Both the position numbers and the translations under genes were made by a program. Positions 13,429-46,304 of a DNA stretch of 64,000 nucleotides are shown here, piece by piece. The notes below the pieces were generated by a model that had not been told where the DNA came from, searched no databases, and saw only the letters and a list, made by a program, of their open reading frames with translations. Within the stretch, counting starts at the first letter, position 1, and each line of letters opens with the position of its first letter. The stretch is from Vicinamibacteria bacterium (GTDB lineage Bacteria > Acidobacteriota > Vicinamibacteria > Marinacidobacterales > Marinacidobacteraceae): contig OZ219815.1 in the NCBI GenBank assembly GCA_964291235.2, forward strand, positions 576,001-640,000, in the 5' to 3' direction.

Positions 13429-13625
13429 CAGCCTGTGGCAAAACCCCCAAGGCCCAGTTCTCCCGGTGGGGGCTCGAGCGGCGATGCATCCCGTCTGAAC
13501 CGCGCCTCTACGAGGCGCTCATCGTTGCGTTTCGGTCGAAATACACTCGGTATTCCTCCCTCACGCGCCTTGTCAGCCGGGCGCCTCGCCACTCTCGGCG
13601 CTCACGGGGGTTTCACCACAGGCTG
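13429..13625 (-). mobile_element. Structured MITE-like element, copy 1 (197 bp; 18-nt extra segment)
   Basis: CAGCCTGTGG...CCACAGGCTG termini; shared core GATGCATCCCG.CTGAAC...GGTCG.AATACAC..GGTATTCC...TCAGCCGGGCG; strand given is the inferred structural strand. Confidence 0.9.
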
Positions 13626-14237
13626 TTAGCGCGCCGGCTCGTAGTACGGGTTCGTTCCGGCGGCGTGGTCGGTGGTGTCCAGGATGGCGCCGATCTCCGG
13701 AACCGCCCGGCGCAGGATCTTCTCGACTCCCTGGCGGAGAGTGGCGGTGGCCATGCCGCACCCCTGACATCCCCCTCCCATGCGAATGAAGACCTGGTTG
13801 CGCTCAACTCCCACGAGGTCGATGTACCCACCGTGGGAGGCGACCGCCGGGTTGATTTCGTCCCGCAGGACGGCCTGGACACGATCCCGGATGTCTTCCG
13901 GCGCCGGGAGGCCCTCGAGCAGCGCGGGGTCCACCGCCGGCTCCGCTCCCTCGAGGACGGATCGGATTCGCTGGCCCGCCTCGCGTCCGATCGGCATCCA
14001 GTTGGCCTGGTTCTCTGCCGCGGTGACCGTGATCAGGTTGTCCTGGATGAGGACCCCTGCAACCCCGGGAATGCCCAGGAGTTCGCGCGCCAGCGCGGAA
14101 CCTCCGGCCGGTCCGGCGGAGTCGAAATAGGCCGATCCCCCGGGGAACACGGGACGGTCAATCACAAACCGGCAGGTCGAGGCGTCGCGCGGCTCGGCCC
14201 GAATGCGGATCGCGGGAGCGGGCGGCGGAAGAGACAT
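13626..14237 (-). CDS. NifU/NfuA-family Fe-S cluster carrier (Nfu N-terminal + NifU C-terminal domains)
   Basis: INPAVASHGG, MGGGCQGC, DTTDHAAGTNPYY; ATG at 14237 (the longer ORF call runs through element copy 2). Confidence 0.92.
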   Translation of the reverse strand: MSLPPPAPAIRIRAEPRDASTCRFVIDRPVFPGGSAYFDSAGPAGGSALARELLGIPGVAGVLIQDNLITVTAAENQANWMPIGREAGQRIRSVLEGAEPAVDPALLEGLPAPEDIRDRVQAVLRDEINPAVASHGGYIDLVGVERNQVFIRMGGGCQGCGMATATLRQGVEKILRRAVPEIGAILDTTDHAAGTNPYYEPAR

Positions 14238-14250
14238 GAAAGAAGCGTAG

Positions 14251-14424
14251 CAGTCTGCGGAGAAAATGACGTGAGCACGGAGAACGGTGAGACGCCCGGC
14301 TGACGAGGCGTGTGAGGGAGGAATACCGGGTGTATTCCGACCGAAACGCAACGATGGGGGCCGCATGGCGGCCCGTTCAGACGGGATGCATCGCAGCCAC
14401 CGGTTGCCGGCAACGCACAGGCAA
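14251..14424 (+). mobile_element. Structured MITE-like element, copy 2 (inverted relative to copy 1, degenerate ends)
   Basis: Core CCCGGCTGA..AGGCG..GAGGGAGGAATAC..GTATTCCGACCGAAACGCAACGATG..TTCAGACGGGATGCATCG; ends CAGTCTGCGG and GCACAGGC. Confidence 0.85.
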
Positions 14425-14808
14425 GGCGGAGGCCAGTGATATCGGGTGACAGCGTCGGGCATCCGGGAGTTCAGGAAACCGGCACGCTCCGCTTCCGGAC
14501 AATGAATCGCCGCGGGGATTTCTGAATCGCACCGGCGCGCCGGATACGGGATACGGATCGGTGGAGCGCTGAAATCGGCGCATTCCCCCGGGATGCGGCG
14601 CCGGATCGCCGGAATTCCCGCGCCGAACCGTCCGTCCCCGGCCACCGCCGCCCCGGGCGCATCCCTTGCGCCTCTTGAAGGACATGCACGGCAACGCGCC
14701 CAAGCCGCCCCGGGTCCCGGAAACCACTCGAATTCAAAGAACACCGGTTCTGCCCCGGGCGAAGCGCCGAAGCCGGCTTTCCAAACCCCCAAGGAGAACA
14801 ACTTCCCC

Positions 14809-17682
14809 ATGAAACACATCACTTTCCTGGCGCTCGCTCTCGCGGTGCTGGCCGGCGCCCCGGCGTTCGGCCAGACCGCGGGAGAAATCGAGGGCCGGGT
14901 CACCGACTCCCAGGGTCTCGCCATCCCCGGAGCGACCGTCACGCTCTCCGGCGAAGCCCTGATCACCGAACAGCGGACCGTCACCCTGAGTGACGGCTCC
15001 TACCGGTTCCGATCGCTCCGTCGCGGCGCGTACGACCTTCGGTTCGAGATCTCCGGATTCCAGATCCTCCTGCGCGAAGGCATCATCGTCGAGGGGAACC
15101 GGACCATCACCGTCCCGGTGACCCTCGAAGTCGCCACGGTCGCGGAAACGGTCACGGTCACCGGCGAAGCGCCGGTGGTGGACGTCCGCACCACGGCGCT
15201 ATCCACGGACTTCGGGACCGAGGCCCTCCATGAGGTGCCCTCCGCAACCGATGTCTGGGCGGTGCTCGCCCAGACGCCGGGCGTACGGATGCGCGGCTAC
15301 GACGTCGGCGGCAGCCACAAGAGCCAGCAGACGGGCTACGAGAGCTTCGGGATCCGCCGCCAGAACCGGATCCTCGCCGACGGCGTGGACACCACCGAAG
15401 GGGAAAGCGGCACCGGCTTCTACTTCGACTACTACTCCATCGAGGAGTTCACCACCTCGGCCGCCGGCGCCGACGTCGAGATGACCGGACCCGGCTCGAT
15501 GGTCGTCATGACGATGAAGAGCGGCGGCAACGAGTTCAGCGGGCTCCTGCACGCCGACTACGAGCATGAGTCGTTCGTCGGCAACAACGTGGACAGCGAG
15601 CTGGAGTCCCGCAACTTCACGGGCAATCCGAACATCCTGTTCTGGGAAGGCCACGCCGACCTCGGCGGGCCGATCGTGGAGGATCGCGCCTGGTTCTACG
15701 GCTTCTACAACCACTTCCGCATCGACAAGCAGGTCTCGGGGGTGGATCCGAACCTGGCCACCGACCTCGGCGACTTCGACCAGTTCGGCGGCAAGGTCAC
15801 CGCGCAGTTGACCAGCCGGGACCAACTCATCGCCTACACCAACTACCAGTTGAAGCAGAAGCCGAAGCGCGGCCTCTCGAACACGGTGGGTCCCGACTCG
15901 GTCCTGGCCCAGGACAGTTGGAGTTGGGCGCACAAGGGCGAATGGCAGCGCGTCTGGGACGACCGGACCTTCTCGACCTTCGCCGTCAAGCACTTCGGAT
16001 TCGGTTGGCCGATGGTGCCGCAGGTCGATCCGGAGTCGAACCCGCCGCGGTTCGACCAGGCAACCGGCATCCACACCGGCGCCGGCTGGAACACCAACAT
16101 CACCGGGACGCCGCCGTTCACGTTTGAGCGCTGGAAGCCCCAGGTGACGGCCACCGTGAGCCACTACGTGCCCGACTTCCTCGGCAGCCATGACTTCAAG
16201 TTCGGCTACGACTTCCAGATCGACGCCCGGAAATTCGGCGCCAACTCGAACTCCGGTCACGTCCGCTACATCGACGACAGCTCCCAGGGCCGGCCGCTGG
16301 ACGTGGACCAGATCGCGCTGTTCAGCATGCCCGCCGACGGCCAGATCAACGCCGATTCGCGGAACACCCATCACGACGTGTTCGCCCAGGACACCTGGCG
16401 GCCGATCGCCCGGCTGACGCTGAACCTCGGCGTCCGTTTCGGGCAGCAGCGGACTCATTTCCTCGACTCGGAGTCGAACCCGCTGTTCGCCGACTTCTTC
16501 CCGACCGGGGTGACCCAGGGACAGACCCTCGTCACCTGGAACACCTGGGCGCCCCGGGTGGGAGCAACCTATGAGCTCGCGGCGGGAACGGTGCTGAAGG
16601 GTCACTACGGCCGCTACTACGTGAACCTCGCGGACGCGCACCGCCGCGCCGACCCGGCGAACGTGGCCTGGACCCGGTTCGATTTCCTCGATCAGAACGG
16701 GAACGGCCTCTACGACGGGGCGAGCGAGCTCGGCACGATTCGCGCAACGAGCGGCGCTACCGGTACGGCCCTGCGGACGCTGGGCACGCCGGTGAACCCG
16801 AATCTGCAAAAGGAATACGTGGATGAGTTCAGCGTCTCCTTCGAGCACGAACTGGTCGCGGACACCGCTCTGCGCGCGTCCTTTGTCCGCAAGCAGCTCA
16901 ACGCCGACAGCGGGCAGTGGAACGTTCCGCAGCAGACCGCGCTCCTCGAGGGACGCGGCATCCCCTGCGGCACAGACTTCGAGTGTCCGACCAACGCGCT
17001 CACCGGGGCGCCGATCAACGTACAGCGGGTCCCGGACGACGTCGCCAACGTAGTGGACATCCAGACCGACACGTTCCCCGACATGGCGGCCAGCTACGAC
17101 ACCTTCCAGATCGCGGCAAACCGTCGTTTCGCGGGTGGATTCTTCGTGCAGGCGAGTTTCGACTACCAGTGGCGGGACGAGTACCGCGCCGCTTCGGGAG
17201 AATCACGAAGCCCCCTGACGGCCGACCCGATCGACGTGGGCTCCGACGGACACGGCACGATCTGGCAAAACCACAGCCTCGACGTCCCCTTCCGCCAGGA
17301 AACCACGAACTGGAACGGGCGCCTGCTCGCCCGCTACACACTGCCCTACGGGGTCGCGGTGTCCGGAAACGTGCGCTACCAGAGCGGCTGGCCGTGGGCT
17401 CCGATCCAGCGGGTCTCGATTCCCGGTTCGGGCACCCAGCCGATCTTCCTCTCGAACCTCGATGAAAACCGCTCCGACGCGGTGACGCTCGCCGATTTCC
17501 GGATCGAGAAGAACTTCGAGGTCGGCAACGGCTCGCTCCTCACCGCGATGGTGGACGTGTACAACGCCCTGAACTCCAACGCGGTTAGCAACTTCAATCT
17601 GCGGACGGGCGCGAATTACAACAACGTGATCGCCGCCCTCGATCCCCGCGCCGCCAAGGTCGGCCTCCGCCTGACCTTCTGA
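14809..17682 (+). CDS. TonB-dependent receptor with carboxypeptidase-regulatory-like N-terminal domain, paralog 1
   Basis: AAGGAG RBS, signal peptide, GRVTDSQG..IPGATV, ETVTVTGEAPVVD, LGGPI, C-terminal RLTF. Confidence 0.9.
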   Translation: MKHITFLALALAVLAGAPAFGQTAGEIEGRVTDSQGLAIPGATVTLSGEALITEQRTVTLSDGSYRFRSLRRGAYDLRFEISGFQILLREGIIVEGNRTITVPVTLEVATVAETVTVTGEAPVVDVRTTALSTDFGTEALHEVPSATDVWAVLAQTPGVRMRGYDVGGSHKSQQTGYESFGIRRQNRILADGVDTTEGESGTGFYFDYYSIEEFTTSAAGADVEMTGPGSMVVMTMKSGGNEFSGLLHADYEHESFVGNNVDSELESRNFTGNPNILFWEGHADLGGPIVEDRAWFYGFYNHFRIDKQVSGVDPNLATDLGDFDQFGGKVTAQLTSRDQLIAYTNYQLKQKPKRGLSNTVGPDSVLAQDSWSWAHKGEWQRVWDDRTFSTFAVKHFGFGWPMVPQVDPESNPPRFDQATGIHTGAGWNTNITGTPPFTFERWKPQVTATVSHYVPDFLGSHDFKFGYDFQIDARKFGANSNSGHVRYIDDSSQGRPLDVDQIALFSMPADGQINADSRNTHHDVFAQDTWRPIARLTLNLGVRFGQQRTHFLDSESNPLFADFFPTGVTQGQTLVTWNTWAPRVGATYELAAGTVLKGHYGRYYVNLADAHRRADPANVAWTRFDFLDQNGNGLYDGASELGTIRATSGATGTALRTLGTPVNPNLQKEYVDEFSVSFEHELVADTALRASFVRKQLNADSGQWNVPQQTALLEGRGIPCGTDFECPTNALTGAPINVQRVPDDVANVVDIQTDTFPDMAASYDTFQIAANRRFAGGFFVQASFDYQWRDEYRAASGESRSPLTADPIDVGSDGHGTIWQNHSLDVPFRQETTNWNGRLLARYTLPYGVAVSGNVRYQSGWPWAPIQRVSIPGSGTQPIFLSNLDENRSDAVTLADFRIEKNFEVGNGSLLTAMVDVYNALNSNAVSNFNLRTGANYNNVIAALDPRAAKVGLRLTF

Positions 17683-17788
17683 CGGCTCCGCCGCGGTGGC
17701 CGGCGCTCTCGCCGGCCACCCGGCCCCCCGGCGCCCGAATCGAGCGCCGATGTGGCACGATCCTTTCTTGCTCGTCGAGCGGAAAGGA

Positions 17789-18889
17789 ATGAGAAACGGC
17801 AAGCGCCTCCTGCGCGCCGCGCCCATCGCGATTCTGCTCGCCGTGCCGGCGCTCGCGTACCACTTCTACGGCGGCGGCAGGCTCGGCGTCGTTGCGTCCA
17901 CGGGTGCGTTCCGCTGGGAACCGGAGGACTTCCCCCTTCGGTTCCGGATCGTCGAGAACGACCATCTGCCATCGTTTCCCGGACTCACGGAAGCCACCTG
18001 GCGGGAACTCATCAACCGGGCCTTCGCGCATTGGACGGCCATTCCCACGGCTCGCATCACCATCGTCGTCGAAGACGAGACGGTAGCGGCTGAGCGCGCG
18101 GCGGACGACAGAATCAACACGGTCGGCTTCGGCGTTCCCGAGGAGGACGAGGACGAATTCCGGTTTGCCGCAACGGCCCGCTGGCGATACGACGGCGCCG
18201 ACTGGGTCGGCTGCGACATCGAATTCAATCCTTCGTACTACGCCGGTCTCCGTGAGCGTCTTCAGGAGAGGGAGTTGCCGGATGTGGCTTTCTGGTCTGC
18301 TCTCGAGAACACGATGATCCACGAGATGGGTCACTGCCTCGGCCTGGCGCATTCGGTCCTCAACCCGATGTTGCCGAGGACCACCGCACAGCCCGCGTGG
18401 ACCCGGGGGGACGGCTTCCTTCCGGAGGGGGTGGCGGCGTTCGCCGCCCATCCGAACATGTCCTACGGGAACGACTTCGGGTTCGTGGGACTCACCCCCG
18501 ACGACGAGATCGCGGTCTCTCTGCTCTATCCCGCCTCCGGATTCCTCGAATCCCGGAGGGCGCTCGCGGGAAGGGTGGTTTTCGATACCGGTGATCCCGC
18601 GCCTTTCGTCTACGTCCAGACCGTGAAGTCTTCATTTGCCGATGTATTCGGTCCCGGCACGCTGACGGACCAATCCGGACAGTTCCTTCTTGAGGGACTC
18701 CGACCCGGTCCCGTCATGCTTTGGGTTCATCCCGTAACCATTCCGGGCGCCCACACCTTCCGCGAGGCCGTGCAGGAAACGGGCACTCTCGACATCGTGG
18801 ACCGCTGGCGCTGGGCTCGGGTCCCGGCGGGCCAAGGACAGCTCAGCCTCGTTCCCGACATCATCGTCTCGAGCGGTCGTTCCCCATGA
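17789..18889 (+). CDS. Secreted matrixin-like (metzincin) zinc protease
   Basis: Signal peptide; HEMGHCLGLAH (HExxHxxGxxH); Met-turn PNMSYG; LTPDD. Confidence 0.88.
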   Translation: MRNGKRLLRAAPIAILLAVPALAYHFYGGGRLGVVASTGAFRWEPEDFPLRFRIVENDHLPSFPGLTEATWRELINRAFAHWTAIPTARITIVVEDETVAAERAADDRINTVGFGVPEEDEDEFRFAATARWRYDGADWVGCDIEFNPSYYAGLRERLQERELPDVAFWSALENTMIHEMGHCLGLAHSVLNPMLPRTTAQPAWTRGDGFLPEGVAAFAAHPNMSYGNDFGFVGLTPDDEIAVSLLYPASGFLESRRALAGRVVFDTGDPAPFVYVQTVKSSFADVFGPGTLTDQSGQFLLEGLRPGPVMLWVHPVTIPGAHTFREAVQETGTLDIVDRWRWARVPAGQGQLSLVPDIIVSSGRSP

Positions 18890-19797: not shown

Positions 19798-19806
19798 CGG
19801 GAATCC

Positions 19807-20403: not shown

Positions 20404-20430
20404 CGACCTTCGGGAGCGACGGAGCCTTGG

Positions 20431-21454: not shown

Positions 21455-23161
21455 TTGAGCCGCCGCGCCCGGAAACACTTCGCGGCGGCGGTGTGTATCA
21501 CCGTTTCGGGTGCGGCCTCCGCTGCGGCCCAGGGGTTCACCGAAGTCACCGAAGCAGCGGGTCTTCGTTTCGTCCACGACGCGGGCGACGAGGGCAACTT
21601 CTCGCTCCCGGAGATCACCGGCGCCGGGGCGGGATTCTTCGATGCCGACGGAGATGGAGATCTCGACATCTATCTGCTCCAGGGCGGCCGGCCGGCCGAC
21701 CCCGCGGGCCCGCGTCCGGGAGCGCCCGGCAACGTCCTCTATCTCCAGGGACCGCCGGGAACTTTTGTGGATGCCAGCGACGCCTCGGGGACGGCCGACA
21801 CCGGCTACGGGATGGGACTCGCGGCGGGAGACTTCGACGGGGATGGGCGTACCGATCTCTTCGTCACGAACTACGGGCCGGATGTCCTCTACCGGAGTCT
21901 CGGCGACGGACGCTTCGAAGACGTGACCGCGGCGGCGGGCGTCGCCGGGGAGGGATGGTCCTCGTCCGCCACCTTCTGCGACTACGACGCCGACGGACGC
22001 CTCGACCTCTACGTCACCCGGTACGTCAGAAACGACCCGGCGAAGCTCTGCACCCAGCAGGACGGGAGCCGCGACTATTGCAGTCCCCAGGTGTTCCCCG
22101 GAGCCCATGACTACCTCTACCGGAACCTGGGCAGGGGCCGTTTCGAGGACGTTTCCCTCGCCTCGGGACTGCGGACGGTGCACGCGCCCGGCCTCGGGGT
22201 GGTCTGCCATGACTTCGACGGCGACCGGCGTCTCGACTTCTATGTGGCGAACGACGGAGAAGCGAACCAGCTCTGGCTGAACCAGGGGCCGGGCGGCTTC
22301 GCCGACGACGCCTTCCTCGCCGGCGTGGCCCTGAACGACGCCGGACGGCCCGAGGCGGGGATGGGGATCGCGCTGGGAGACGTGGACGCCGATCTCGATC
22401 TCGACCTCTTCATCACCCACGTCGCGGACGAGACGAACACCCTCTACCGGAGCGACGGTTCGGACCTTGGGTTGTCCTTCGCCGACCGCACCGGCCCTTC
22501 CGGCCTCGGCCCAGCGAGCATGGCGATGACGGGTTTCGGGACCGGGTTCGCAGACCTGGATCTCGACGGCGCGCTGGACCTCGTGGTCGCGAACGGCCGG
22601 GTCCAGCGGAAACCCGCGCTTCCGGGAGCTCTCGGTGACGCTTTCTGGAGGGTCTTCGGCGAGCCGAACCAGGTGTTCCGAAACGGCGGCACGCAGGGGA
22701 ACGACGCCCTCTTTGCCGGTTTCGAGAGTGCCGGGGACTTCGACGGGGTCATCGAAGTCAGCCGCGGGCTGGCGCTCGGGGACTATGACGAGGACGGCGA
22801 TCTCGACCTGCTGCTCGCGAACGCGGAAGGACCCGCCCGCCTCTATCGGAACGACTTCGAGCGGAGCGGATCGCCGCTCCGCGTGACCACCCTCGACGCC
22901 GCGGGAAGGCCTGCGTTTCCGGCCGTGGTGACCGCGGTCTTGGCGGACGGCGCCCGCTCGGTACGCCGCGCCGACCCGGGCGGAAGCTATCTGGCGACCG
23001 GCGATCCGCGCGCGTTCTTTGCAGTCCCGCCGAACGGCGAGGTGACCGAATTTGAGGTGATCTGGCCGGATGGGAATCGCGAAGCCTTTCCCGGAACCGG
23101 TAGCGCAACCGTCAGCCTGAGGCAGGGCGGCGGCGAGCCCCGCCAGGAAACTCGCCGGTAA
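21455..23161 (+). CDS. CRTAC1-family FG-GAP repeat / ASPIC-UnbV protein
   Basis: Repeated DxDGDGxxD motifs; SRGLALGD; C-terminal GGSYLA..V.WPDG. Confidence 0.9.
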   Translation: MSRRARKHFAAAVCITVSGAASAAAQGFTEVTEAAGLRFVHDAGDEGNFSLPEITGAGAGFFDADGDGDLDIYLLQGGRPADPAGPRPGAPGNVLYLQGPPGTFVDASDASGTADTGYGMGLAAGDFDGDGRTDLFVTNYGPDVLYRSLGDGRFEDVTAAAGVAGEGWSSSATFCDYDADGRLDLYVTRYVRNDPAKLCTQQDGSRDYCSPQVFPGAHDYLYRNLGRGRFEDVSLASGLRTVHAPGLGVVCHDFDGDRRLDFYVANDGEANQLWLNQGPGGFADDAFLAGVALNDAGRPEAGMGIALGDVDADLDLDLFITHVADETNTLYRSDGSDLGLSFADRTGPSGLGPASMAMTGFGTGFADLDLDGALDLVVANGRVQRKPALPGALGDAFWRVFGEPNQVFRNGGTQGNDALFAGFESAGDFDGVIEVSRGLALGDYDEDGDLDLLLANAEGPARLYRNDFERSGSPLRVTTLDAAGRPAFPAVVTAVLADGARSVRRADPGGSYLATGDPRAFFAVPPNGEVTEFEVIWPDGNREAFPGTGSATVSLRQGGGEPRQETRR

Positions 23162-24724: not shown

Positions 24725-24964
24725 AGCGCGGGACTCCGGCAGGCGCCGGCCCACACCAGGGGGTTGGACATTCGGCGGCGTCCGGCCGTATCATCGCTCC
24801 ACGATTTTGAATTCACCGCGCCGTTTCTGGATCAACACAGCCACCCGGAATTCCAACCTATTGAAAAACCTGATAGATGCAGGACACCCGGCCAGAGTCT
24901 TCGGTGGCATGTCAGTTGCGAGTTGCGGTCATCAATCTTTGTCTTACCCGTTGAAGGAGGGACC

Positions 24965-32264: not shown

Positions 32265-35174
32265 CTAGAAGGTCAGGCGGGCGCTGAGGCCGATCGTCCG
32301 GCCCTGGATCCACTCGATGGTGTTCCGGTACGCCCCGCCAGCGCGCATGATGAAGTTGGTCTCCGAGGCGTTGTTCAACGCGTTGAAGACATCCAGCATG
32401 AACTGGATCTCGGCGCTGTCGCCGAGGCTGACCGCCTTGTCCACCCGGAAGTCGACGATCGAGACGGTGTCCGAACGGCGGTTGTCCAGGTGGTCGAGGA
32501 AGATCGTCTGGGTTCCCACGTTTCCGATGCCCACGCTCAGGAGCGGCGCCCACGGGAAGCCGCTGACGTAGCGGAGCGTTCCGGCGACACCGACCTCATA
32601 AGGCATGACGTAGCGTGCCGCGCCCTTGAACTGCCAGTTGGTCACGCTCTGGATGAGCGGGATGAAGCCGTACTGGTAGGTCCAGCCGACCCCGACCGGG
32701 TCCGTCGTGAGCGGGCTCGTGGACTGGCCAGGGGTCCGGCCTTCGTTCCGCCACTGGTAGTCGAAGTAGGCGTTCCAGAAGAAGTTGTTCCGGAACCGCC
32801 GGTTGACACCCAGCGAGAGCGTCGTCCAGTTGAAATCCGCTTCGCCGTCCGGCACGTTCGTGACGAGGTTTTCGCTCGTCGGAGCGCCGTCCGGGAGGTC
32901 GTGCACCGTCAGCATCGTGCCGGCAAGTCCGTCAGGACAGGCGGCAGGGCAGGGAACCTGCTTGGTGTTCGTCAGTTTTCCGGCCCGGGCGATGTTCAGG
33001 GGTTCGAAAAATGCGCCCGTCTGGCGCTTGTGGACGAGCGAGGCGCGGAGCCCGAGGTCGTTGCCAACCTGGTGCTCGAAGGAGGCGCTGACCTCATCCA
33101 CATAGGGCTGTGTCGTGTTCGAGTCCACCGCGCTGCCGGTCGGAGGCACGCTGAAGTCCGAGCCGAGTCCGGCACCCGTGCTGCCGCCGAGACGATCGCC
33201 CAGTTCGTGCACGCCGTCGAAGAGGCCGTTCATGTTCTGATCGAGGAATCCGTAGGTGACGCTCTTGTTGCCACCGGGGTTCGTACTCTGCCATCCACTG
33301 TTCATGTTGTGGTAATAGCGTCCCCCGTAGCCCTTGACGACGGTGCGGCCCTCGCCGGTGACGTCATAGGTGAAGCCCACGCGCGGCGCGATGTTCCACC
33401 AACTGATCACGTTGCTGTTTCCCTGAATTTCGGCGCCAGGTCCGAACAACTGCGGTAGCGCCCCGGCGACATTCGCGTCGATGTCCGCGATCTCGCGGAT
33501 GCAACCGACGACTGCCTGACAGGTGCTGCCCGGCACGTTGTTGGAACCGAGGTACCCGATCCGCTGGCTTCCGAAGCGGACACCCGCGTTGAGCGTCAGC
33601 CGGTCCGTCAACGTCCAGACGTCCTGGGCGTAGAAGTCGATGTGGGTGTTCCGGTCCTGGTTGAAGTTCGGGAAGCTCTGGAAGTGGATCTCGTTCACGT
33701 TTTGCGGCCGCGGCGGATCCTGTGCGCTGTTGTCGAGGTAGCGCACTGCGCCCGAGTTGGCGTTCCAGCCGAACTGCCGCTCGTCGATCTGCATGTCCCA
33801 GCCGAACTTGAAGTCGTGGCTGCCGCTCTCGGTGGGCAGGTAATAGTTGAACTGACCGGTCGAGTGGGGCTTCCAGCGGTTGAAGGTGAACGGCCTCCAG
33901 CCGGCGCCCGACCAGAAGCTGGTGCCCGAGTCGAAGCGCGGCGGATTCGTCGCCGGATCCACGGCAGGCGTCATCGGCCAACCGAAGCCGAAGTGGTTCA
34001 CCTGGATGTTGCTGTAGAGCCGGTCGCTCCAGACTCGCTGCCACTCGGCCTTGTGCAGCCAGCTCCACGAGTCCTGCGCCAGGATGGATTCCGCCGGGCG
34101 GTTCGCCGAGAGACCCCGGAAGGGCTTCTGCTTCAGCGACCAGTGGTGGAAAGTGATGAACTGGTCCCGCTCGGTGATCTGCCAGTTCGCCTTCACCGTG
34201 AACATGTCGAAGTCGCCGAGGTCGGTACCCTCCGATTCGGGCTGCCCGGAAATGATCCGGTCGATGACGAACCGGTTGTAGGCAGCGTAGAACCACGCCT
34301 TGTCCCGCACGATCGGTCCGCCGAGATCGATGTGCGCCTCGTAGAACTCGATCACCGGCGCCGTGGTGCCGCCGCGGCCCATCAGGTCCGACGTGATGTT
34401 GTCGTTGATCCAGTCGGGCGGCTCGTAAGCGAAGTGCTCGGTTCCAGAGAAGTCGTTACCGCCGCTCTTCCACACCGCGTTCACCGTCGCGCCCGGGGTG
34501 TTCGATTCCACATCGGCACCCTGCGCGGACACCTGGAACTCACCGATCGCGTAGAAGTCGTAGTAGCCGCCCGCGCCGCCGGTCCCCTCGGTGGTGTTCA
34601 CACCGTCGTTGATGATCCGGTTCTGTCCCCGGACCCCGAAGGTCTCGTAGCCGGACTGCTGGCTCTTGTGGGACCCGCCCACGTCATAGCCGCGCATCCG
34701 CACGCCCGGGCTCTGCTGGAGGACCGCCCACATGTCGGTTGCCGACGGGACGTCCTCGAGCTGGGTGGTGTCGAAGGTTGCCGACACACCCGTCGTCTTC
34801 ACGTCCACCACCGGGGATTCGCCCGTCACGGTGACGGTCTCGGCGACGGTCGCGATGTCCATCGTGGCGTTGATCTCGAAGGTCGAGCCGCCAACCACGG
34901 TGATGTCCTCGAAGACGACGGTCTGGAAACCGCCGAGTTCGAAGGTCATGTTGTAGCTGCCGCCGACGAGTTGGGCGAATCGGTAGGACCCGTCCACGTC
35001 GGTGGTCGCGCTCCGGGCGGCCACGAGTTCATCGGACTCCAGGGTCACCGTCACTCCGGGGAGCACGAGGCCCTGGGCGTCGCTCGCGGCGCCCTCAAGG
35101 CGCCCGTAAATCTGCTGGGACAAGGCCGCACTGGGCCATGCCACCAGCAGCGTAAAGAGAATGAGTTTTCTCAT
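32265..35174 (-). CDS. TonB-dependent receptor, paralog 3
   Basis: AAGGAGG RBS before MRKLILF; GYDVGGSHKSQQ motif; ends GRTIGLSARLTF, as in paralog 2. Confidence 0.9.
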   Translation of the reverse strand: MRKLILFTLLVAWPSAALSQQIYGRLEGAASDAQGLVLPGVTVTLESDELVAARSATTDVDGSYRFAQLVGGSYNMTFELGGFQTVVFEDITVVGGSTFEINATMDIATVAETVTVTGESPVVDVKTTGVSATFDTTQLEDVPSATDMWAVLQQSPGVRMRGYDVGGSHKSQQSGYETFGVRGQNRIINDGVNTTEGTGGAGGYYDFYAIGEFQVSAQGADVESNTPGATVNAVWKSGGNDFSGTEHFAYEPPDWINDNITSDLMGRGGTTAPVIEFYEAHIDLGGPIVRDKAWFYAAYNRFVIDRIISGQPESEGTDLGDFDMFTVKANWQITERDQFITFHHWSLKQKPFRGLSANRPAESILAQDSWSWLHKAEWQRVWSDRLYSNIQVNHFGFGWPMTPAVDPATNPPRFDSGTSFWSGAGWRPFTFNRWKPHSTGQFNYYLPTESGSHDFKFGWDMQIDERQFGWNANSGAVRYLDNSAQDPPRPQNVNEIHFQSFPNFNQDRNTHIDFYAQDVWTLTDRLTLNAGVRFGSQRIGYLGSNNVPGSTCQAVVGCIREIADIDANVAGALPQLFGPGAEIQGNSNVISWWNIAPRVGFTYDVTGEGRTVVKGYGGRYYHNMNSGWQSTNPGGNKSVTYGFLDQNMNGLFDGVHELGDRLGGSTGAGLGSDFSVPPTGSAVDSNTTQPYVDEVSASFEHQVGNDLGLRASLVHKRQTGAFFEPLNIARAGKLTNTKQVPCPAACPDGLAGTMLTVHDLPDGAPTSENLVTNVPDGEADFNWTTLSLGVNRRFRNNFFWNAYFDYQWRNEGRTPGQSTSPLTTDPVGVGWTYQYGFIPLIQSVTNWQFKGAARYVMPYEVGVAGTLRYVSGFPWAPLLSVGIGNVGTQTIFLDHLDNRRSDTVSIVDFRVDKAVSLGDSAEIQFMLDVFNALNNASETNFIMRAGGAYRNTIEWIQGRTIGLSARLTF

Positions 35175-35599
35175 GCTGCTTGGTCCTCCTTGGGGGGTCG
35201 GAAGCATGGAAAGGAGAAAGATGTCAGTCAGGAGTAGCAACGGCCGGACCAAGGGGGCCGACCGAGCCGTTTCCGTTCCTAAGTCGTTCTGAATTCGTTT
35301 TGTTACGTCCGCACCTCGCGGTGCCGAAATCCAAGTAATTCACCCCAATATTCGTTTTATTGGAGCCGAACAGCCAATTGTCTTGAATCTCGTAGGCCCC
35401 TGTCAACCCGGGAAGGTCGGTTCTGGGCTCATCAGCGGCGCCCCAAGACGCGGACCGGGCCTCCGGATGCCGGGGGCTGTGCGGTCCAATACGGCTGATC
35501 GGATCGTGCGGCGACCCTGGCGCTGCTCCAGGGCGACCACCGAAGAGCGCGGATTCTTTCCGTTGGGATGCCGATAAGAAACGGAGTGCGAAGAGTCTC

Positions 35600-38032: not shown

Positions 38033-38050
38033 CAGAGCCTCAACCAACCG

Positions 38051-39358: not shown

Positions 39359-39459
39359 CCCGGGCATGACAGCCCGGCAGACAAGGCGGCGCTTCTTGGC
39401 GTGGCGATCCGCCGTCGTCGTTTGAGTTGACGTTGTCGGGGGTGACCAAGCTTGGGAGT

Positions 39460-39682
39460 CAGGAGCGCCGGCCTCCAGGCTGGCATCGCGGCCGCAGGTC
39501 GCGAAACTCCCATCGTCAACCGGCCAGGATGGCGCCGCAGCCCGGCAGTGTGGCGCTGCGCCACTCGCGCGCCCGTACGGCCACGCGCGGTCATCGCTTG
39601 GGTCGGTGTTGTGGACGCAGATTGAGTCTGGGAGTTTCGCTTCGCTATGCGAAGCGATGCCGGCCGGAGGCCGGCGCTCCTG
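39460..39682. repeat. Inverted pair of REP-like GC palindromes
   Basis: caggagcgccggcctccaggctggca (39460-39485) and tgccggccggaggccggcgctcctg (39658-39682) are near-perfect reverse complements. Confidence 0.65.
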
Positions 39683-39705
39683 GCACTCCTTGCACTCCTC
39701 GCCCT

Positions 39706-39734
39706 TTGACGGCCGCCGAGCCGGGGCATATCTT
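39706..39734 (+). promoter_or_regulatory. sigma70-like promoter upstream of M20 paralog A
   Basis: TTGACG-N17-TATCTT; context ctcgccctttgac..catatctt is conserved before paralog B. Confidence 0.65.
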
Positions 39735-39738
39735 CTAG

Positions 39739-39917
39739 CAGCCTGTGGAGGAAGTGACGCGAGCACCGAGAACGGGGAGGCGCCCGGCTGACAAGGCGCC
39801 CGAGGGAGGAATACCAGGTGTATTCCGACCGAAGGGCAACGATGAGGGTCGCGTAGCGACCCGGTTCAGCCGGGATGCATCGCCGTTCGAATGCCGCGTG
39901 ACTTTCTGCACAGGCTG
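39739..39917 (+). mobile_element. Structured MITE-like element, copy 3 (179 bp)
   Basis: CTAG|CAGCCTGTGG...GCACAGGCTG|CTCA; full core present. Confidence 0.92.
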
Positions 39918-39986
39918 CTCAAAGTGACCGCTCGCTAGGCGCGATGGTGCGGTCACGGCTCCGTTCGACTCAGGGAGGAGACTCTG

Positions 39987-41672
39987 ATGACCCGAAAAAC
40001 AACCCGATTCGGCCTGTTTTTGATCTTCGCCGCCGGGCTCGGCTTACTGGCCTGTGGAGCGCCCGAGACGGAGGACCGGACCGCCCCCGGCGCCGAGACG
40101 CTCGGCGTCCGGGCCGACGGCGACACCCAGATCTCCCCCGACCTGTCGCGGATTCCCGAGGAACTGCAGCAAGTGTTCCGCCACATCGACGACAACGTGG
40201 ATCGCCAGCACGTGATGAACCTGAGGCGCTGGATCCAGCAGCCGAGCATCTCGAACTCGGGCGAGGGAATCCCCGAGTCGGCCCAGATGGTCAAGGGGTT
40301 CTTCGATCAGCTCGGTTGCCAGCATTCCCAGGTGTACGAGATCCCCATGACCGAGTGGGGGCAGCCGGGCAATCCGGTGGTGTACGCGAACTGCAACTAC
40401 GGCGCCGAGCGCACCCTGCTCATCTACTGGATGTACGACACGATGCCGATCACCCAGCCCGAGGCCTGGGTGCTCCCGCCGTTCGACGGGGAGTTCACCG
40501 AGTTCGGCCCCTTCAAGAAGGTGATGATCGGCCGCGGCGCGACCAACTCCAAGGGTCCGCAGATGGTCCAGTGGAACGCCTTCCACTCGATCTACGAGGA
40601 AACCGGCACCATGCCGGTGAACCTGATCTTCATCGCCGAGGGCGACGAGGAGCGGATGTCCATCGGCCTCCGCCAGTTCGTCCGCGAAAACCCGGATCTG
40701 TTCCGCGAGGCGGAGGCGATGTACCGCTTCGGGCGGCAGTCACGCTCCGGCGCCGCGGGCATCGGGGGCGGTTCGGAAGGCTGCGTTTACATCGAACTCA
40801 CCACCAGCGGAGCGAGCTGGGGACGGGGCCCGGTGGCCTCCAACATCCACGGATCCAGAAAACGCTCCGTGGACGCCCCGGCGCTCCGCCACGTGAAGAT
40901 GCTCTCGTCACTGGTAACCGATGACGGGAACGGGGTGTTGGTTCCCGGGTTCTACGACGGCGCCGACCCGCTGAACGACGCGGAGGAAGCGATGTTCCAA
41001 AACGCCGCCGAGAACATCGACCTGGCGGTCGCCGCCGAGAACATCGGGGTGGCCCGCTTCATCAGCGACGATCCGCTGACCTACCTGAAGAGCGCGCGCT
41101 ACGGCATTTCCTTCAACATGGACGGCGTCTGGGCCGGCAACATGTATCCGGGCGGCGCCGGCGCCATTCTGCCGAACCGCATTACCTCCAAGCACAACAT
41201 GCGCTACGTCCCCAGCATGGACGGGCTGGAGATGGTCCAGAAGATCCGGGACTACCTGGATGAGCAGGGCTACGAGGACGTCGAGATGACGATCATCGGG
41301 GACGTCCCGTGGTCGAAGTCCAGCTACGACAACCGGGCGGCGCACTCCCTGCTGCACACCTATGACATTTTCGGGATCCCCTACCGGGACCCGATCGAAG
41401 GGGAGAGCATCCTCGGCGGTTACTGGCCCGCCTATCTCTTCAGCGGCCGGGACGGGGATTTCGCCGACGGCACCGACCTCTCGATGCCGATCGTGGGCGG
41501 CGCCGGCGGCCACGGAGGCGGCTCCCACGCGGCCAACGAGTTCTGGGTGATCGAGGGCGCCGGCAACGTCTATGGGATGGCCGGCGGCGAGAAGACGGTG
41601 GCGACCTTCCTCTACGCCTACGCGGGGCTGCTCCCCGATGCCCCGGCCGAGACCGGGATGGACGAGGAATAG
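39987..41672 (+). CDS. M20/M25/M40-family metallohydrolase lipoprotein, paralog A
   Basis: GGAGGAG RBS; LLAC lipobox; QQPSIS, YDTMP...W..PPF, GRGATNSKG, EGDEE, HAANE. Confidence 0.88.
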   Translation: MTRKTTRFGLFLIFAAGLGLLACGAPETEDRTAPGAETLGVRADGDTQISPDLSRIPEELQQVFRHIDDNVDRQHVMNLRRWIQQPSISNSGEGIPESAQMVKGFFDQLGCQHSQVYEIPMTEWGQPGNPVVYANCNYGAERTLLIYWMYDTMPITQPEAWVLPPFDGEFTEFGPFKKVMIGRGATNSKGPQMVQWNAFHSIYEETGTMPVNLIFIAEGDEERMSIGLRQFVRENPDLFREAEAMYRFGRQSRSGAAGIGGGSEGCVYIELTTSGASWGRGPVASNIHGSRKRSVDAPALRHVKMLSSLVTDDGNGVLVPGFYDGADPLNDAEEAMFQNAAENIDLAVAAENIGVARFISDDPLTYLKSARYGISFNMDGVWAGNMYPGGAGAILPNRITSKHNMRYVPSMDGLEMVQKIRDYLDEQGYEDVEMTIIGDVPWSKSSYDNRAAHSLLHTYDIFGIPYRDPIEGESILGGYWPAYLFSGRDGDFADGTDLSMPIVGGAGGHGGGSHAANEFWVIEGAGNVYGMAGGEKTVATFLYAYAGLLPDAPAETGMDEE

Positions 41673-41735
41673 CAATCCGAAAGCGTTCCGCTCCGGCGTG
41701 GTCGCGTCCGCGCCGCGGGCGGCGCACCTCGCCCT

Positions 41736-41765
41736 TTGACAGGCCGGCCGGAAGGGACATATCTT
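41736..41765 (+). promoter_or_regulatory. sigma70-like promoter upstream of M20 paralog B
   Basis: TTGACA-N18-TATCTT in a GC-rich background. Confidence 0.65.
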
Positions 41766-41832
41766 CCAGAGTTGGCCGTCCCCCGGAGTGAGGTGCGGCC
41801 GCTGCTCGGTCCCACCCACGAAGGAGATTTTG

Positions 41833-43515
41833 ATGACGCGAAACGCAACCCGATTCGGCCTGTTCCTGCTGCTCGTTTGCGGGCTCGGCTGGCTCGCCTG
41901 CGGAGCCCCCGAAATGGAGGACCGGATGGCGCCCGCCACCGAGACACTCGGCGTGCGCGCCGCGGGCGACACGGAAATTGCACCCGACATGTCGCAGATC
42001 CCCGAGGAACTCCAGCAGGTGTTCGGGCACATCGACGACAACATCGATGAGCACGTGATGAATCTCCGTCGCTGGATCCAGCAGCCGAGCATCTCGAACT
42101 CGGGCGAGGGAATCCCCGAATCAGCCCAGATGGTCAAGGGGTTCTTCGACCAGCTCGGCTGTCAGCAATCGCAGGTGTACGAGATTCCCATGACCGAATG
42201 GGGGCAGCCCGGCAACCCGGTCGTGTATGCGAACTGCGACTACGGCAAGGAGCACACGATCCTCATCTACTGGATGTACGACACGATGCCGATCACCCAG
42301 CCCGAGGCCTGGGTGCTCCCGCCGTTCGACGGGGAGTTCACCGAGTTCGGCCCCTTCAAGAAGGTGATGATCGGCCGCGGCGCGACCAACTCCAAGGGTC
42401 CGCAGATGGTCCAGTGGAACGCCTTCCACTCCATCTACGAGGAGACCGGATCCATGCCGGTCAACCTGATCTTCATCGCCGAGGGTGACGAGGAGCGGAT
42501 GTCCATCGGCCTCCGGCAGTTCGTCCGCGAAAATCCGGAACTCTTCGCCGAGGCGGACGCGATGTATCGCTTCGGTTCCCAGTCGCGCTCCGGGGCCGCC
42601 GGCATCGGCGGCGGATCGGAAGGCTGCGTTTACATCGAACTCACCACCAGCGGAGCGAGCTGGGGACGGGGCCCGGTGGCCTCCAACATTCATGGGGCAC
42701 ACAAGCGCTCCACCGACGCCCCGGCGCTCCGCCACGTAAAAATGCTCTCTTCCCTGGTTACCGAGGACGGGAACGGGGTGTTGATTCCCGGGTTCTACGA
42801 CGGCGCCGACCCGCTGAACGACGCCGAGGAGGCGATGTTCCAAAACGCCGCCGAGAACATCGACATGGCCGTTGCCGCCGAGAACATCGGAGTGGCCCGC
42901 TTCATCAGCGACGATCCGCTGACCTACCTGAAGAGCGCGCGCTACGGCATTTCCTTCAACATGGACGGCGTCTGGGCCGGCAACATGTATCCCGGCGGCG
43001 CCGGCGCGATCCTGCCGAACCGGATTACCTCCAAGCACAACATGCGCTACGTCCCCAGCATGGACGGGCTGGACATGGTCCAGAAGATCCGGGACTACCT
43101 GGATGAGCAAGGCTACGAGGACGTCGAAATGACGATCATCGGAGACGTCCCGTGGTCGAAGTCCAGCTACGACAACCGGGCGGCGCATTCGCTGCTCCGC
43201 ACCTACGACGTCTTCGGCATCCGCTACCGCGATCCCCTCGAGGGCGAATCCATACTGGGCGGTTACTGGCCGGCATACCTGTTCAGCGGCAGGGACGGGG
43301 ACTTCGCCGACGGCACCGACCTCTCGATGCCGATCGTCGGCGGGGCGGCCGGACACGGCGGCGGCGCCCACGCGGCCAACGAGTTCTGGGTCATTGAGGG
43401 CGCCGGCGAGGTCTATGGGATGGCCGGGGCCGAGAAGTCGATCGCTACTTTCCTCTACGCCTATGCCGGACTGCTACCCGATGCCCCGGCCGAGACAGGG
43501 ATGGACGAGGACTAG
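41833..43515 (+). CDS. M20/M25/M40-family metallohydrolase lipoprotein, paralog B
   Basis: GAAGGAG RBS; highly similar to paralog A with long identical stretches. Confidence 0.88.
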   Translation: MTRNATRFGLFLLLVCGLGWLACGAPEMEDRMAPATETLGVRAAGDTEIAPDMSQIPEELQQVFGHIDDNIDEHVMNLRRWIQQPSISNSGEGIPESAQMVKGFFDQLGCQQSQVYEIPMTEWGQPGNPVVYANCDYGKEHTILIYWMYDTMPITQPEAWVLPPFDGEFTEFGPFKKVMIGRGATNSKGPQMVQWNAFHSIYEETGSMPVNLIFIAEGDEERMSIGLRQFVRENPELFAEADAMYRFGSQSRSGAAGIGGGSEGCVYIELTTSGASWGRGPVASNIHGAHKRSTDAPALRHVKMLSSLVTEDGNGVLIPGFYDGADPLNDAEEAMFQNAAENIDMAVAAENIGVARFISDDPLTYLKSARYGISFNMDGVWAGNMYPGGAGAILPNRITSKHNMRYVPSMDGLDMVQKIRDYLDEQGYEDVEMTIIGDVPWSKSSYDNRAAHSLLRTYDVFGIRYRDPLEGESILGGYWPAYLFSGRDGDFADGTDLSMPIVGGAAGHGGGAHAANEFWVIEGAGEVYGMAGAEKSIATFLYAYAGLLPDAPAETGMDED

Positions 43516-43694
43516 CAGCCCGTGGCAAAACCCACGCGGCGTTCGACGAGCGATGCATCCCGTCTGAACCGTGCCGCTTCGCGGCGCTCGGCGTTGCGCT
43601 TCGGTCGAAATACACCCGGTATTCCTCCCTCGCGCGCCTTCTCAGCCGGGCGCCTCGCCCGTCTCGGCGCTCACGCGGGTTTCACCACGGGCTG
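43516..43694 (-). mobile_element. Structured MITE-like element, copy 4 (179 bp)
   Basis: CTAG|CAGCCCGTGG...CCACGGGCTG|CTAG; the left CTAG contains the paralog B stop codon. Confidence 0.93.
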
Positions 43695-43808
43695 CTAGCA
43701 ACCGGAAATTGAGCAGCGCTCTGGTTCGTCCCGGGGACCCGGCTTCCGGAGGGGAGCCGGGTCCGACGTTTGGGGCGCGCCCCTGACCCCTGAAAGGCCA
43801 CGAGACCC

Positions 43809-44546
43809 ATGCCGGAGGAATCGCCTCCCACCGCAATTGAAGTTCGGGATCTCGTCAAGACGTACGTCCTGAGCGAGACCCATCGGGTGGAGGCCCTCCG
43901 TGGACTCACCCTGTCGGTGGACAAGGGGGAGTTCCTGTCGGTCCTCGGCCCGTCCGGATCCGGCAAGAGCACCCTGATGCACATCATCGGCTGTCTCGAC
44001 CAGCCGACCTCCGGGGAATACCACCTCATGGGACGCGACATCTCCCGCCTCGGGAACGACGAGCGCGCCCGCATCCGGAACGAGGAGATCGGGTTCGTCT
44101 TCCAGAGCTTCCACCTGCTCGCCCGGGCCAGCGCCCTCGAGAACGTGGAACTTCCCATGCTCTACGGGGCCAAGCGGCCGGGACGCGAAGAAAGACGCCG
44201 GAAGGCGTCCGAAGCGTTGGCGGCCGTGGGCCTCTCCGACCGGGCGACCCACGCCCCGAGCCAGCTCTCCGGAGGCCAGCAGCAGCGGGTTGCCATCGCC
44301 CGGGCCCTCGCCAACCGGCCGCGCCTCCTGCTGGCGGACGAACCGACCGGCAATCTGGACACCCGGACCGGACGGGAAATCCTCGACACCTTCGCCCGGC
44401 TCAACTCGGAACGAGGACTGACCGTGATCATGATCACCCACGACCGGCAGGTGGCGCAGTATGCCTCCCGAAGCGTTGAGCTGCGGGACGGACGAATCCT
44501 CACCGACGAAGGAATATCGAGCAATGGAGCAGACCCCGGTGCCTGA
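43809..44546 (+). CDS. ABC transporter ATP-binding protein (LolD/MacB type)
   Basis: GPSGSGKST, LSGGQQQRVAIARAL, ADEPTGNLD, ITHD. Confidence 0.96.
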   Translation: MPEESPPTAIEVRDLVKTYVLSETHRVEALRGLTLSVDKGEFLSVLGPSGSGKSTLMHIIGCLDQPTSGEYHLMGRDISRLGNDERARIRNEEIGFVFQSFHLLARASALENVELPMLYGAKRPGREERRRKASEALAAVGLSDRATHAPSQLSGGQQQRVAIARALANRPRLLLADEPTGNLDTRTGREILDTFARLNSERGLTVIMITHDRQVAQYASRSVELRDGRILTDEGISSNGADPGA

Positions 44547-46074
44547 TCCCAAAAACGGAGCACGTTTCCAGCGCCTGTTACGCGAGTTGCCCGCCGAACG
44601 GCGCACGGCGCTCGAAACCGCCGTCCAGAGCCTGCGGCGCTACCCGCTCCGGACCACGCTGACCCTGCTCGGCCTCGCGTTCGGGGTGGCGGCCCTGATG
44701 GCGACGATCGCCCTCGGTCGCGGTGCCCAGGGTGCGATCCAGGATCAGGTGCGCGCCGCCGGTCTCAACGTGATCGAGGTGACGGCCGGCAACTATCGGA
44801 CCCGCGGAGAGCGGCCCATCGGGGGCATCGAGGCGCCCGCCCGGCATGGGGCGGCCCTCCCTCCTGGCGTGCTGGAGCGCTTCCTGAGGAAGATCGAGCC
44901 GGTGGCTCTGGCGCATCCCGAGAACGATCCGATGGAAAAACACGATCATCCGACGGCCGCGGATCGGCTCGGAGATTCGGCAGCCGGTCTCGGCGCGGCG
45001 GCGACGCTGACCAGCGACGACGCCGACGCGATCGCATCGCTACCCGGTGTCGCCCATGTCGCATCAGGCATCCACGAGAGCGTCCGCATCTTCGCCGGTG
45101 ACCGACGCTGGTTCACACGGCTTCACGGCACCGACGTGGACCTCGTGCAGATCCGCCGGTCGTTCGCGATGCAGCACGGACGGTTCTTCAGTGCCGGAGA
45201 ACTGAGGCGCTCCTCCCAGGTGGTGGTGCTCGGCAGCGTCGCGCGGGACCAGCTCTTCGGCCAGGGCGAGGACCCGGTCGGCCGCGAGGTCAGCATCTGG
45301 AACCAGTCGTTCGAGGTGGTCGGCGTCGTGGTGAGCAGCAACTGGATGAATCCCGGCGCTCCCGGCGACGATGAATTCGACGCGGTGTACACACCCTTTA
45401 CCGCCGTCCATCGGCTGCTCAACGCCACGAACCTCAACTCCATCACCGTGACCGCGGCGTCGTCCGGACGGGTCACCGAGGTGTCCCGGGACATCACCGA
45501 TCTGCTCCGCGAGCGGCACGGAATCGGGGAAACCCAGGCTGACGATTTCACGGTGACGACCCAAGCGTCGGAGGTGCTCGGCAAGGGCCTTCATCCGAAG
45601 GTGGCCGAAACCCTCGCCGGCAACATCCCGAATCTCGAACGCACCACCCTGCGACAGCTCGCCGCGACCCTCGAACGTTCCAGCAGCACCATGTCGGCGC
45701 TGCTGCTCGCCATCGCGCTCGTCTCGTTGATCGTGGGCGCGATCGGGATTTCGAACGTCATGCTGCTCTCGGTGCGCGAACGGATCCGCGAAATCGGGCT
45801 GCGAATGGCGGTCGGAGCGCAGACCGGGGATGTCGGCAACCAGTTCCTCACCGAGTCCGTGCTGCTCGGCGCCGCCGGGGGGGTGCTGGGCGTCGTGATC
45901 GGCGCGGTGGCCGCGGTGGTAGTCGAGAGTTCGTTCGGATTGGCGGTCGAGGTTTCGGCAGTGGCCGGCCTGATCTCGTTCCTGGTGGCGCTCCTCACCG
46001 GAGTGATCGCCGGGGTCAGTCCGGCGCGGCGAGCCGCCCGTCTCGACCCGATCGTCGCCCTCGGTTCGGAATAG
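44524..46074 (+). CDS. MacB/FtsX-type ABC permease with His-rich insertion
   Basis: PLRTTLTLLG; SNVMLLSVRERIREIGLRMAVGA; PARRAARLDPIVAL; insertion AHPENDPMEKHDHP. Confidence 0.9.
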   Translation: MEQTPVPDPKNGARFQRLLRELPAERRTALETAVQSLRRYPLRTTLTLLGLAFGVAALMATIALGRGAQGAIQDQVRAAGLNVIEVTAGNYRTRGERPIGGIEAPARHGAALPPGVLERFLRKIEPVALAHPENDPMEKHDHPTAADRLGDSAAGLGAAATLTSDDADAIASLPGVAHVASGIHESVRIFAGDRRWFTRLHGTDVDLVQIRRSFAMQHGRFFSAGELRRSSQVVVLGSVARDQLFGQGEDPVGREVSIWNQSFEVVGVVVSSNWMNPGAPGDDEFDAVYTPFTAVHRLLNATNLNSITVTAASSGRVTEVSRDITDLLRERHGIGETQADDFTVTTQASEVLGKGLHPKVAETLAGNIPNLERTTLRQLAATLERSSSTMSALLLAIALVSLIVGAIGISNVMLLSVRERIREIGLRMAVGAQTGDVGNQFLTESVLLGAAGGVLGVVIGAVAAVVVESSFGLAVEVSAVAGLISFLVALLTGVIAGVSPARRAARLDPIVALGSE

Positions 46075-46125
46075 GAATCCGCCGGCCGGCGAGCGGCGGC
46101 AGGTTCAGTCGGGCAGCGGGATTAA

Positions 46126-46304
46126 CAGCCTGTGGACAAAGTCACGCGGCATTCGAACAGCGATGCATCCCGGCTGAACCGGGCCGCTGCGCGACCCTCA
46201 TCGTTGCGTTTCGGTCGGAATACACTCGGTATTCCTTCCTCACGCGCCTTGTCAGCCGGGCGCCTCACTGTTCTCGGTGCTCACGTCACTTTATCCACAG
46301 GCTG
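46126..46304 (-). mobile_element. Structured MITE-like element, copy 5 (179 bp)
   Basis: TTAA|CAGCCTGTGGA...TCCACAGGCTG|TTAA. Confidence 0.93.

Follow-up and report, generated by a model that had tools for sequence, protein, structure and literature searches.

We analysed five copies of a short non-coding repeat in a 64-kb window (the whole stretch under study, 64,000 nucleotides; G000:C1:576001-640000) of a Vicinamibacteria genome, hereafter G000 (3.45 Mb, 90% complete). The repeat is a 179-bp MITE (a miniature transposable element with inverted repeats) of an ordinary known sort. Its first copy carries an additional 18-bp word, termed the unit, which recurs in this genome and its relatives and has the insertion pattern of a mobile element, and two lineages of IS110-family insertion sequences (ISs) are aimed at that word. 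An explanation in three layers, namely the MITE, the mobile unit and IS110 parasites of the unit, is probably correct as a whole.

The 179-bp element and its probable IS1182-like partner

Copies 1 to 5 are located at 13429..13625 (minus strand, 197 bp, that is, 179 bp plus the 18-bp unit), 14251..14424 (plus strand, 174 bp), 39739..39917 (plus strand, 179 bp), 43516..43694 (minus strand, 179 bp) and 46126..46304 (minus strand, 179 bp), in agreement with the first-pass annotation of the window; copies 2 and 3 have the opposite orientation to the other three. The termini given there, CAGCCYGTGG...CCACRGGCTG, were recovered in copies 1, 4 and 5. In copy 3 the left terminus is exact and the right one (GCACAGGCTG) carries a single change, and the right end of copy 2, an old copy lying 13 bp upstream of the nfu start, has decayed. 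The flanks were likewise as described, with CTAG on both sides of copy 4, TTAA on both sides of copy 5 and imperfect pairs at the remaining copies (CTAG/CTCA at copy 3). The annotation had missed two features, the fold of the whole element and the separate repeated nature of the extra 18 bp in copy 1. Copy 4 is inserted where an M20 peptidase gene has its stop codon, TAG, and the TAA stop of a NifU/Nfu-domain gene sits in the right flank of copy 1; stop codons are often supplied or overlapped by MITE target words (nfu TAA and M20 peptidase TAG; window 13626, 43515 and 43695).

Searched with a profile of the five copies, the 3.45-Mb genome returned 97 matches at E ≤ 1, of which 56 are full length, whereas its reversed sequence returned none, so that the repeat is no chance occurrence. 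This genome-wide check, proposed in the first-pass annotation, supports the high copy number predicted there. Lengths among the 56 full copies included 179 bp (24 copies), 197 bp (8), 215 bp (2), 233 bp (5) and 251 bp (1); copy 2 lies outside this set because of its decayed right end. Of 31 relatives searched, 25 carry the MITE; for members of the bacterial family the count is 17 of 18. It is short and non-coding, has terminal inverted repeats and many dispersed copies, and occurs at orthologous sites that are filled in some genomes and empty in others. No MITE stands at the site of copy 4 in any of the 15 congeners (15 of 15); four of them show one CTAG at the stop codon, and copy 4 fits a duplication of such a lone CTAG. 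The site of copy 1 was empty in 14 of 15 congeners, with a copy nearby in G004, and the spot of copy 2 holds a full copy in G002 and a stub in G006; copy 2 is an old insertion common to G000 and G002.

Autonomous elements with the same ends were found in relatives. A DUF772 search of 28 family genomes returned 30 loci, 29 of which were read, and 12 of these bear the ends of the MITE on elements of approximately 1.5 kb. Such elements occur in 7 of the 28 genomes and none was found in G000. The transposase open reading frame (ORF) bounded by the same termini, which the first-pass annotation had suggested looking for, was found in these relatives. The left end of this partner in G009 and G001 is identical to that of copy 1 over 16 bases, an exact 4-bp direct repeat flanks 11 of the 12 IS copies with MITE ends (four are non-palindromic), and the ends of MITE subfamilies resemble different IS variants.

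The partner encodes a 475-aa protein with DUF772 and DDE_Tnp_1 domains. Like IS1182-family members, this partner of about 1.5 kb combines DUF772 and DDE domains with short repeats at its termini and a duplication of 4 bp, and IS1182 is its best NCBIfam model; the score of 146 bits is below the model cut-off of 270, and the partner is therefore called IS1182-like and not a confirmed member. The IS5/IS427 or IS701 kinship suggested earlier was not supported, as IS5 models scored 29-83 bits, all below cut-off, and no IS701 model matched at E ≤ 0.001.

The shared ends, the 4-bp duplication of the IS and the empty orthologous sites are established, and an IS1182-like transposase very probably moved these MITE copies. 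Most likely, an IS1182-like DDE IS of the same bacterial family would carry the MITE in trans to targets of the YTAR type, among which stop codons are frequent. The view that the element is non-autonomous and moved in trans gains support from the 56 full copies, the empty sites and the autonomous element of the relatives.

Several observations weigh against this mechanism. Searches of G000 for a helper with DDE_Tnp_1, DUF772, IS1380 and the partner protein all gave no match in a genome that is 90% complete. The predicted 4-bp duplication is less well borne out than had been proposed: YTAR-type flanks occur on the left of 45 and on the right of 39 of the 56 full copies, but a direct 4-bp repeat was present in 17 of the 56, 16 of these 17 being palindromic. 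An extended hairpin suits the flanks better than a duplication does, with one direct-only copy as against six that are inverted-only, and in 49 of 56 copies the bases adjoining the two ends are complementary; arm conversion after insertion could account for the non-direct flanks. A single strand of the element takes the form of a rod that has a three-way junction, with z scores of −10.3 for DNA and −12.2 for RNA. Among 24 distinct 179-bp copies with a mean identity of 86%, at least two Watson-Crick types were found in 25 of 61 pairs, and the wobbles fall on one strand (145 G-T vs 4 A-C cells), a strand-specific pairing that cut-and-paste does not need.

The last of these features would be natural if the MITE were copied via a folded single strand, in the manner of repetitive extragenic palindrome (REP) doublets forming hairpins (REPINs), with the shared IS ends as a record of origin. 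The fold of the whole element, its covarying pairs, the one-strand wobbles and the lean of the flanks towards inverted over direct repeats all suit such copying. It is opposed by the 16-base identity with a live IS end, by the likeness of subfamily ends to different IS variants and by the YTAR flanks, and no REP-associated tyrosine transposase (RAYT) was found in the MITE-rich G004 and G013. We regard it as unlikely and retain cut-and-paste by the IS1182-like transposase. Conserved loop words around the junction (window 46200-46250) may be akin to the cores of hairpin MITEs such as ERIC. The core motif was also read as hammerhead-like, an interpretation rejected on account of its base pairing. 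In the search of G000 for a helper, a single pair of ends, set far apart, came to light.

The 18-bp unit and the search for a possible mover

At MITE position 153, where the empty MITE has GT/AT, copy 1 has the 18-bp unit (CCAGTTCTCCCGGTGGGG, 13454..13471, plus strand) and the GC that follows it (13472-13473); the unit is oriented opposite to the MITE, and the length steps of the MITE (179 to 197 to 215 bp and onwards) stem from this single word. Exact copies numbered 83 in G000 and 5-1288 per congener in all 15 congeners, with 220 in G018. The extremes among near-complete congeners were 6 copies in G009 and 1288 in G013, a range of roughly 200-fold. With a two-base variant included, the unit was found in 22 of 28 family genomes; none was found in 12 genomes of other families (0 also in the reversed control) or in 300 other genomes of the phylum. 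In this second variant, which is common in genus g4 (L145-L159 in G018, L398-L400 in G038), two linked substitutions perfect the 4-bp hairpin of the unit. Viral contigs gave one exact match, in a non-repeat context.

The unit is not a sequencing artefact, since near-complete genomes hold 0-1288 copies, fragmented assemblies hold it as well, and a separately assembled contig of run X1, possibly the source sample, spans the copy 1 flank and the unit with 0 differences. Its flanks are repeated DNA in 105 of 121 units, compared with 188 of 1000 non-ORF controls. This flank-repeat test was used in place of a loose motif classifier of host repeats, which was dropped as it also tagged 333 of 600 controls.

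The mode of insertion was read from 396 units, for which G000, a 400-kb part of G013 and 15 selected regions of G018 served as sources. An empty counterpart was found for 236, with a net gain of 18 bases in 192, 19 in 39 and another value in the remaining 5. Next to the unit come two bases, mostly GC, in place of the AA, TT, GT, AT, GA or TG of the empty allele, indicating that about 20 bases enter and two target bases are lost. When 431 units of four genomes were compared with the MITE, 195 mapped onto it in 15 position bins (approximately ten sites), none of which was occupied in both orientations, and sites 39, 55, 137 and 153 recurred across genera as unit positions. Many unit sites are, by eye, mismatches, loops or the junction of the MITE fold, and no clear target consensus was seen by eye at unit sites. 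Folding in 80-nt windows was only slightly stronger at the empty sites than in controls (median −17.3 vs −15.0 kcal/mol). Units were also found in tandem, within REP-like repeats and nested in one another up to three deep.

On a tree of 50 of the 56 MITE copies, constructed with units masked, the 14 filled copies at site 44 required 12 changes (shuffled mean 12.4), the 6 at site 55 required 6 and the 7 at site 153 required 6. The orthologous MITE copy upstream of nfu holds different unit sets in G001, G008 and G013. These scattered fills and differing units indicate that units were gained, or converted in, after the MITE had landed. The insertion pattern, the scattered gains and the differing units in orthologous copies are direct observations, and from them we hold with good confidence that the 18-bp unit is an independently mobile micro-element. 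As a second layer, it would be pasted into resident hairpins (the MITE, REP-like repeats and itself) at fixed positions and in one orientation per position.

Some results count against such independent mobility. No empty counterpart was found for 160 of the 396 units, and the gain of 19 bases in 39 units means that the loss of two bases is not universal. With 6 of 47 branches starred, the tree of MITE copies has weak support, its well-supported branches force just 2-3 changes, and short-tract gene conversion could scatter units among existing sites.

The single fixed orientation per site favours strand-specific chemistry over capture by end joining, and recognition of structure is favoured by the want of any consensus among the targets. 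We propose that a predicted trans-acting enzyme, reading structure above sequence, would perform strand-specific cut-and-join on folded single-stranded DNA; this is the likeliest chemistry, held with a little less than even confidence. Two candidates of the HUH class gave it no support. RAYT was not found in any of five genomes (G004, G013, G018, G036 and G017, four of them unit-bearing) by a search run without a positive control, and a search for the Y2 transposase, the second HUH candidate, gave no match, as did its controls. G000 has a RAYT-like Y1 gene in single copy (L070, G000:C1:15098-18334), which lies between arrays of REP-like hairpins and not beside the unit and has homologs in most congeners.

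Other candidates were surveyed in sets of five genomes. RVT_1 reverse transcriptase was absent from G000 and found in 1 of 5 high-load genomes, IS110 was found in 0 of 5 genomes, three of which bear the unit (G036, G038 and G039, with 37, 58 and 25 units), and no TnpB scored above cut-off in 5 genomes. Cas1, present in 4 of 5 genomes, was rejected because it was not found in G000 and is present in the unit-free G034, and Ku was rejected because its presence in 5 of 5 genomes, G034 included, does not track the unit. No long parent element with the outer ends of the unit was found in 400 kb of G013 or in 30 of 39 split-form loci. A repeat sharing the 3' part of the unit was rejected as parent, being the left end of IS110 lineage B (see below) and its relics.

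The unit could also have spread without a dedicated enzyme, from few origins, with hairpin repeats exchanging it by gene conversion or by the template switching of a polymerase, through host repair functions. Nearly all units do lie in multicopy repeats, no candidate mover tracks the unit, and Ku is found in all five genomes tested; its occurrence in the unit-free G034 speaks the other way. Such spread is also hard to reconcile with an exact-ended word that is found in itself, in REP-like repeats and at some ten MITE sites lacking homology to one another, where no flanking homology is available to copy from. Three haplotypes carry the unit at MITE site 73, their differences lying a few bases away from the junction, and site 153 in another genus carries a different two-base variant. 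We therefore judge an enzyme-free spread improbable and prefer the mobile unit.

Two IS110 lineages at the unit

Copy 1 presents an unoccupied target for each of two IS110 lineages, both on the minus strand: CGAGCCC-CC-ACCG at 13464..13476 (core 13468-13469) for lineage A and CCGGGAG-AA-CTGG at 13454..13466 (core 13458-13459) for lineage B. The transposases of the two lineages scored 141.6 and 253 bits with the NCBIfam DEDD transposase model (cut-off 140), and B (419 aa), whose element has subterminal inverted repeats, is 27% identical to A (420 aa) over 133 aa.

Lineage A has five copies in G000, all five within a unit at the CC core. Its left end has two loops whose sequences match target and donor, in a fold that is no better than shuffles. 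The seven copies examined of its homologs in G014 and G004 all sit in units, and their left guide varies with the flank. One of the G014 homologs (L030) occupies MITE site 153, by which the unit of copy 1 is an open target. Homologs 37-43% identical to lineage A have other guides and are located in REP-like repeats.

Close homologs of lineage B were found in G001, G004 and G008. This lineage splits the unit at the AA core in G001 and G004, and the G008 guide matches the junction of an older relic. Both repeat motifs were present in 18 of 70 related loci examined, and the 16 of these 18 that come from other taxa keep the AA core, with a guide that follows other targets. Non-coding relics of lineage B, approximately 90-140 bp in length, lie inside the unit at L120 and L134 (G002), L140 and L141 (G008) and L045 (G014), and one lineage A copy adjoins a lineage B relic. 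The unit has a 12/16 likeness to a bridge-RNA stem, which was borderline by hand. A search limited to a stretch of the window listed no RNA data set holding it.

The guides of IS621 engage in 'handshake' pairing. Guide loops of a bridge RNA that match target and donor are described for this element in the available text of PMC11208160. We read both lineages as parasites of the unit because their guides fix the inner cores and because G036, G038 and G039 hold units without detectable IS110. As a third layer, the predicted guide RNAs of two distant IS110-family lineages would have been retargeted to the abundant unit, one at the CC and the other at the AA core. Judged from their sequences, both lineages very likely use the unit as a harmless landing site and do not make it. 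A point against is that lineage B copies combine a left junction from one host site with a right junction from another, and these loci are therefore rearranged.

The opposite relation, in which the unit is the footprint of an IS110 whose true ends lie beyond the apparent core and which seeds its own targets, draws on the two halves of the unit that flank all five lineage A copies in G000 and on close lineage B homologs in 3 of the 4 congeners of highest unit load. The guide loops nevertheless put the ends at the inner cores, and two lineages as distant as these split the unit at different cores. Furthermore, the three genomes in which no IS110 was found hold units all the same, and G014 has 7 IS110 matches yet just 45 units. 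A footprint is thus very unlikely. IS110 preprints (10.64898/2026.08.31.748434, 10.1101/2025.10.25.684509 and 10.64898/2026.08.14.744561) describe half-match and single-strand routes, and no unit-like footprint is described in their available portions.

Comparison with known systems and further features

RUP is a bacterial MITE descended from a DDE IS. Correia, ERIC, Nezha and Chunjie are further MITEs of this descent, according to the available text of PMC3184786. Like these DDE-derived MITEs, the 179-bp element is non-coding, falls within 150-250 bp, has terminal inverted repeats and a long hairpin, lies between genes, would depend on a helper in trans and shows filled and empty sites. It differs from other MITEs in its probable IS1182-like helper and 4-bp target, in flanks that are mostly no longer direct repeats, and in an interior that is a hotspot for a second element. 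That it is instead a conserved regulatory RNA of neighbouring genes would suit its very stable, covarying fold and can practically be dismissed given the empty orthologous sites, the ends held in common with an IS and the Rfam check proposed earlier, in which no family reached the gathering score. A literature search, with most subscription papers and ISfinder outside its reach, returned nothing on this MITE or the unit.

Small dispersed repeats (SDRs) named SDR1-8 are said to have been described in heterocystous cyanobacteria by Elhai and colleagues in 2008. As characterised in the available text of papers that cite them, cyanobacterial SDRs are about 20 nt long, both dispersed and tandem, and apparently mobile (PMC4390886, PMC13756078, PMC2884548, PMC3116915). 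SDR5 inserts precisely within another repeat, HIP1, according to the corresponding parts of PMC4390886, PMC13756078 and PMC2884548, which name no mover of SDRs; the part of PMC13756078 concerned with SDR5 gives it no known function. The unit resembles SDRs, as defined in these citing papers, in its length of about 20 nt, its dispersed and tandem occurrence and its precise insertion in another repeat, and SDRs appear to be the closest known class. Compared by description only, the unit differs in phylum and sequence, in its many unrelated hairpin sites, in the two bases overwritten, in self-nesting and in being used by two IS110 lineages.

REPINs and their RAYT offer a second comparison, as very small hairpin repeats for which single-stranded movement in trans is presumed; the RAYT of the genus is flanked by other REPs and not by the unit, and RAYT was not found in four unit-bearing genomes. 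Lineages A and B resemble the REP-targeting IS110 elements IS621 and ISPpu9, as presented in the available text of PMC11208160 and PMC3184786 (compare PMC12288879), in that their guides spell an abundant non-coding repeat. They differ from those elements in that the target is an 18-bp unit nested in other repeats and that two cores are used by two lineages.

Tentatively, and with failure the likelier outcome, the unit may represent a distinct class of mobile DNA, a word of about 20 bases, too short for two transposon ends, that would be written into hairpins by a structure-guided enzyme with two bases overwritten. As part of this doubtful reading, there may be a four-level chain of parasites comprising the IS1182-like element, the MITE, the unit and the two RNA-guided IS110 lineages, and the roughly 200-fold difference in load between near-complete congeners would make the mover of small dispersed repeats findable by genome comparison. 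The unit is relevant to the movement of repeats some 20 bases long, as it combines a readable insertion rule and several candidate enzymes that do not follow its distribution with near-complete genomes that hold 6 as against 500-1300 copies. If true, the homology-free writing of a defined 20-mer into hairpins by an enzyme would represent a DNA chemistry that is new. Lineages A and B of IS110 would provide a natural case of bridge RNAs independently retargeted onto one small word.

The window contains further repeated features. M20-family peptidase genes are tandemly duplicated between MITE copies 3 and 4 (window 39987-41672 and 41788-43515). Three paralogous genes of about 1000 aa (window 14593-17682, 24764-27859 and 32265-35252) are 70-80% alike in blocks, and the first has a weak match to a TonB-linked receptor. 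Two paralogous genes with internal Asp-rich repeats (window 21455-23161 and 50364-52064) look by eye like FG-GAP proteins. Elsewhere in G000, an element judged by eye to be of IS3 type (TG...CA ends, integrase-like ORF) has four copies, each in the loop of a REP-like hairpin with a CTC duplication (G000:C1:301024-302368, C1:1072670-1074013, C2:609713-611056 and C2:1782313-1783656). A 21-kb stretch at the end of C1 (G000:C1:1323458-1344352) is 99.4% identical to one inside C2 (C2:493115-514020), representing either an island duplication or an assembly join.

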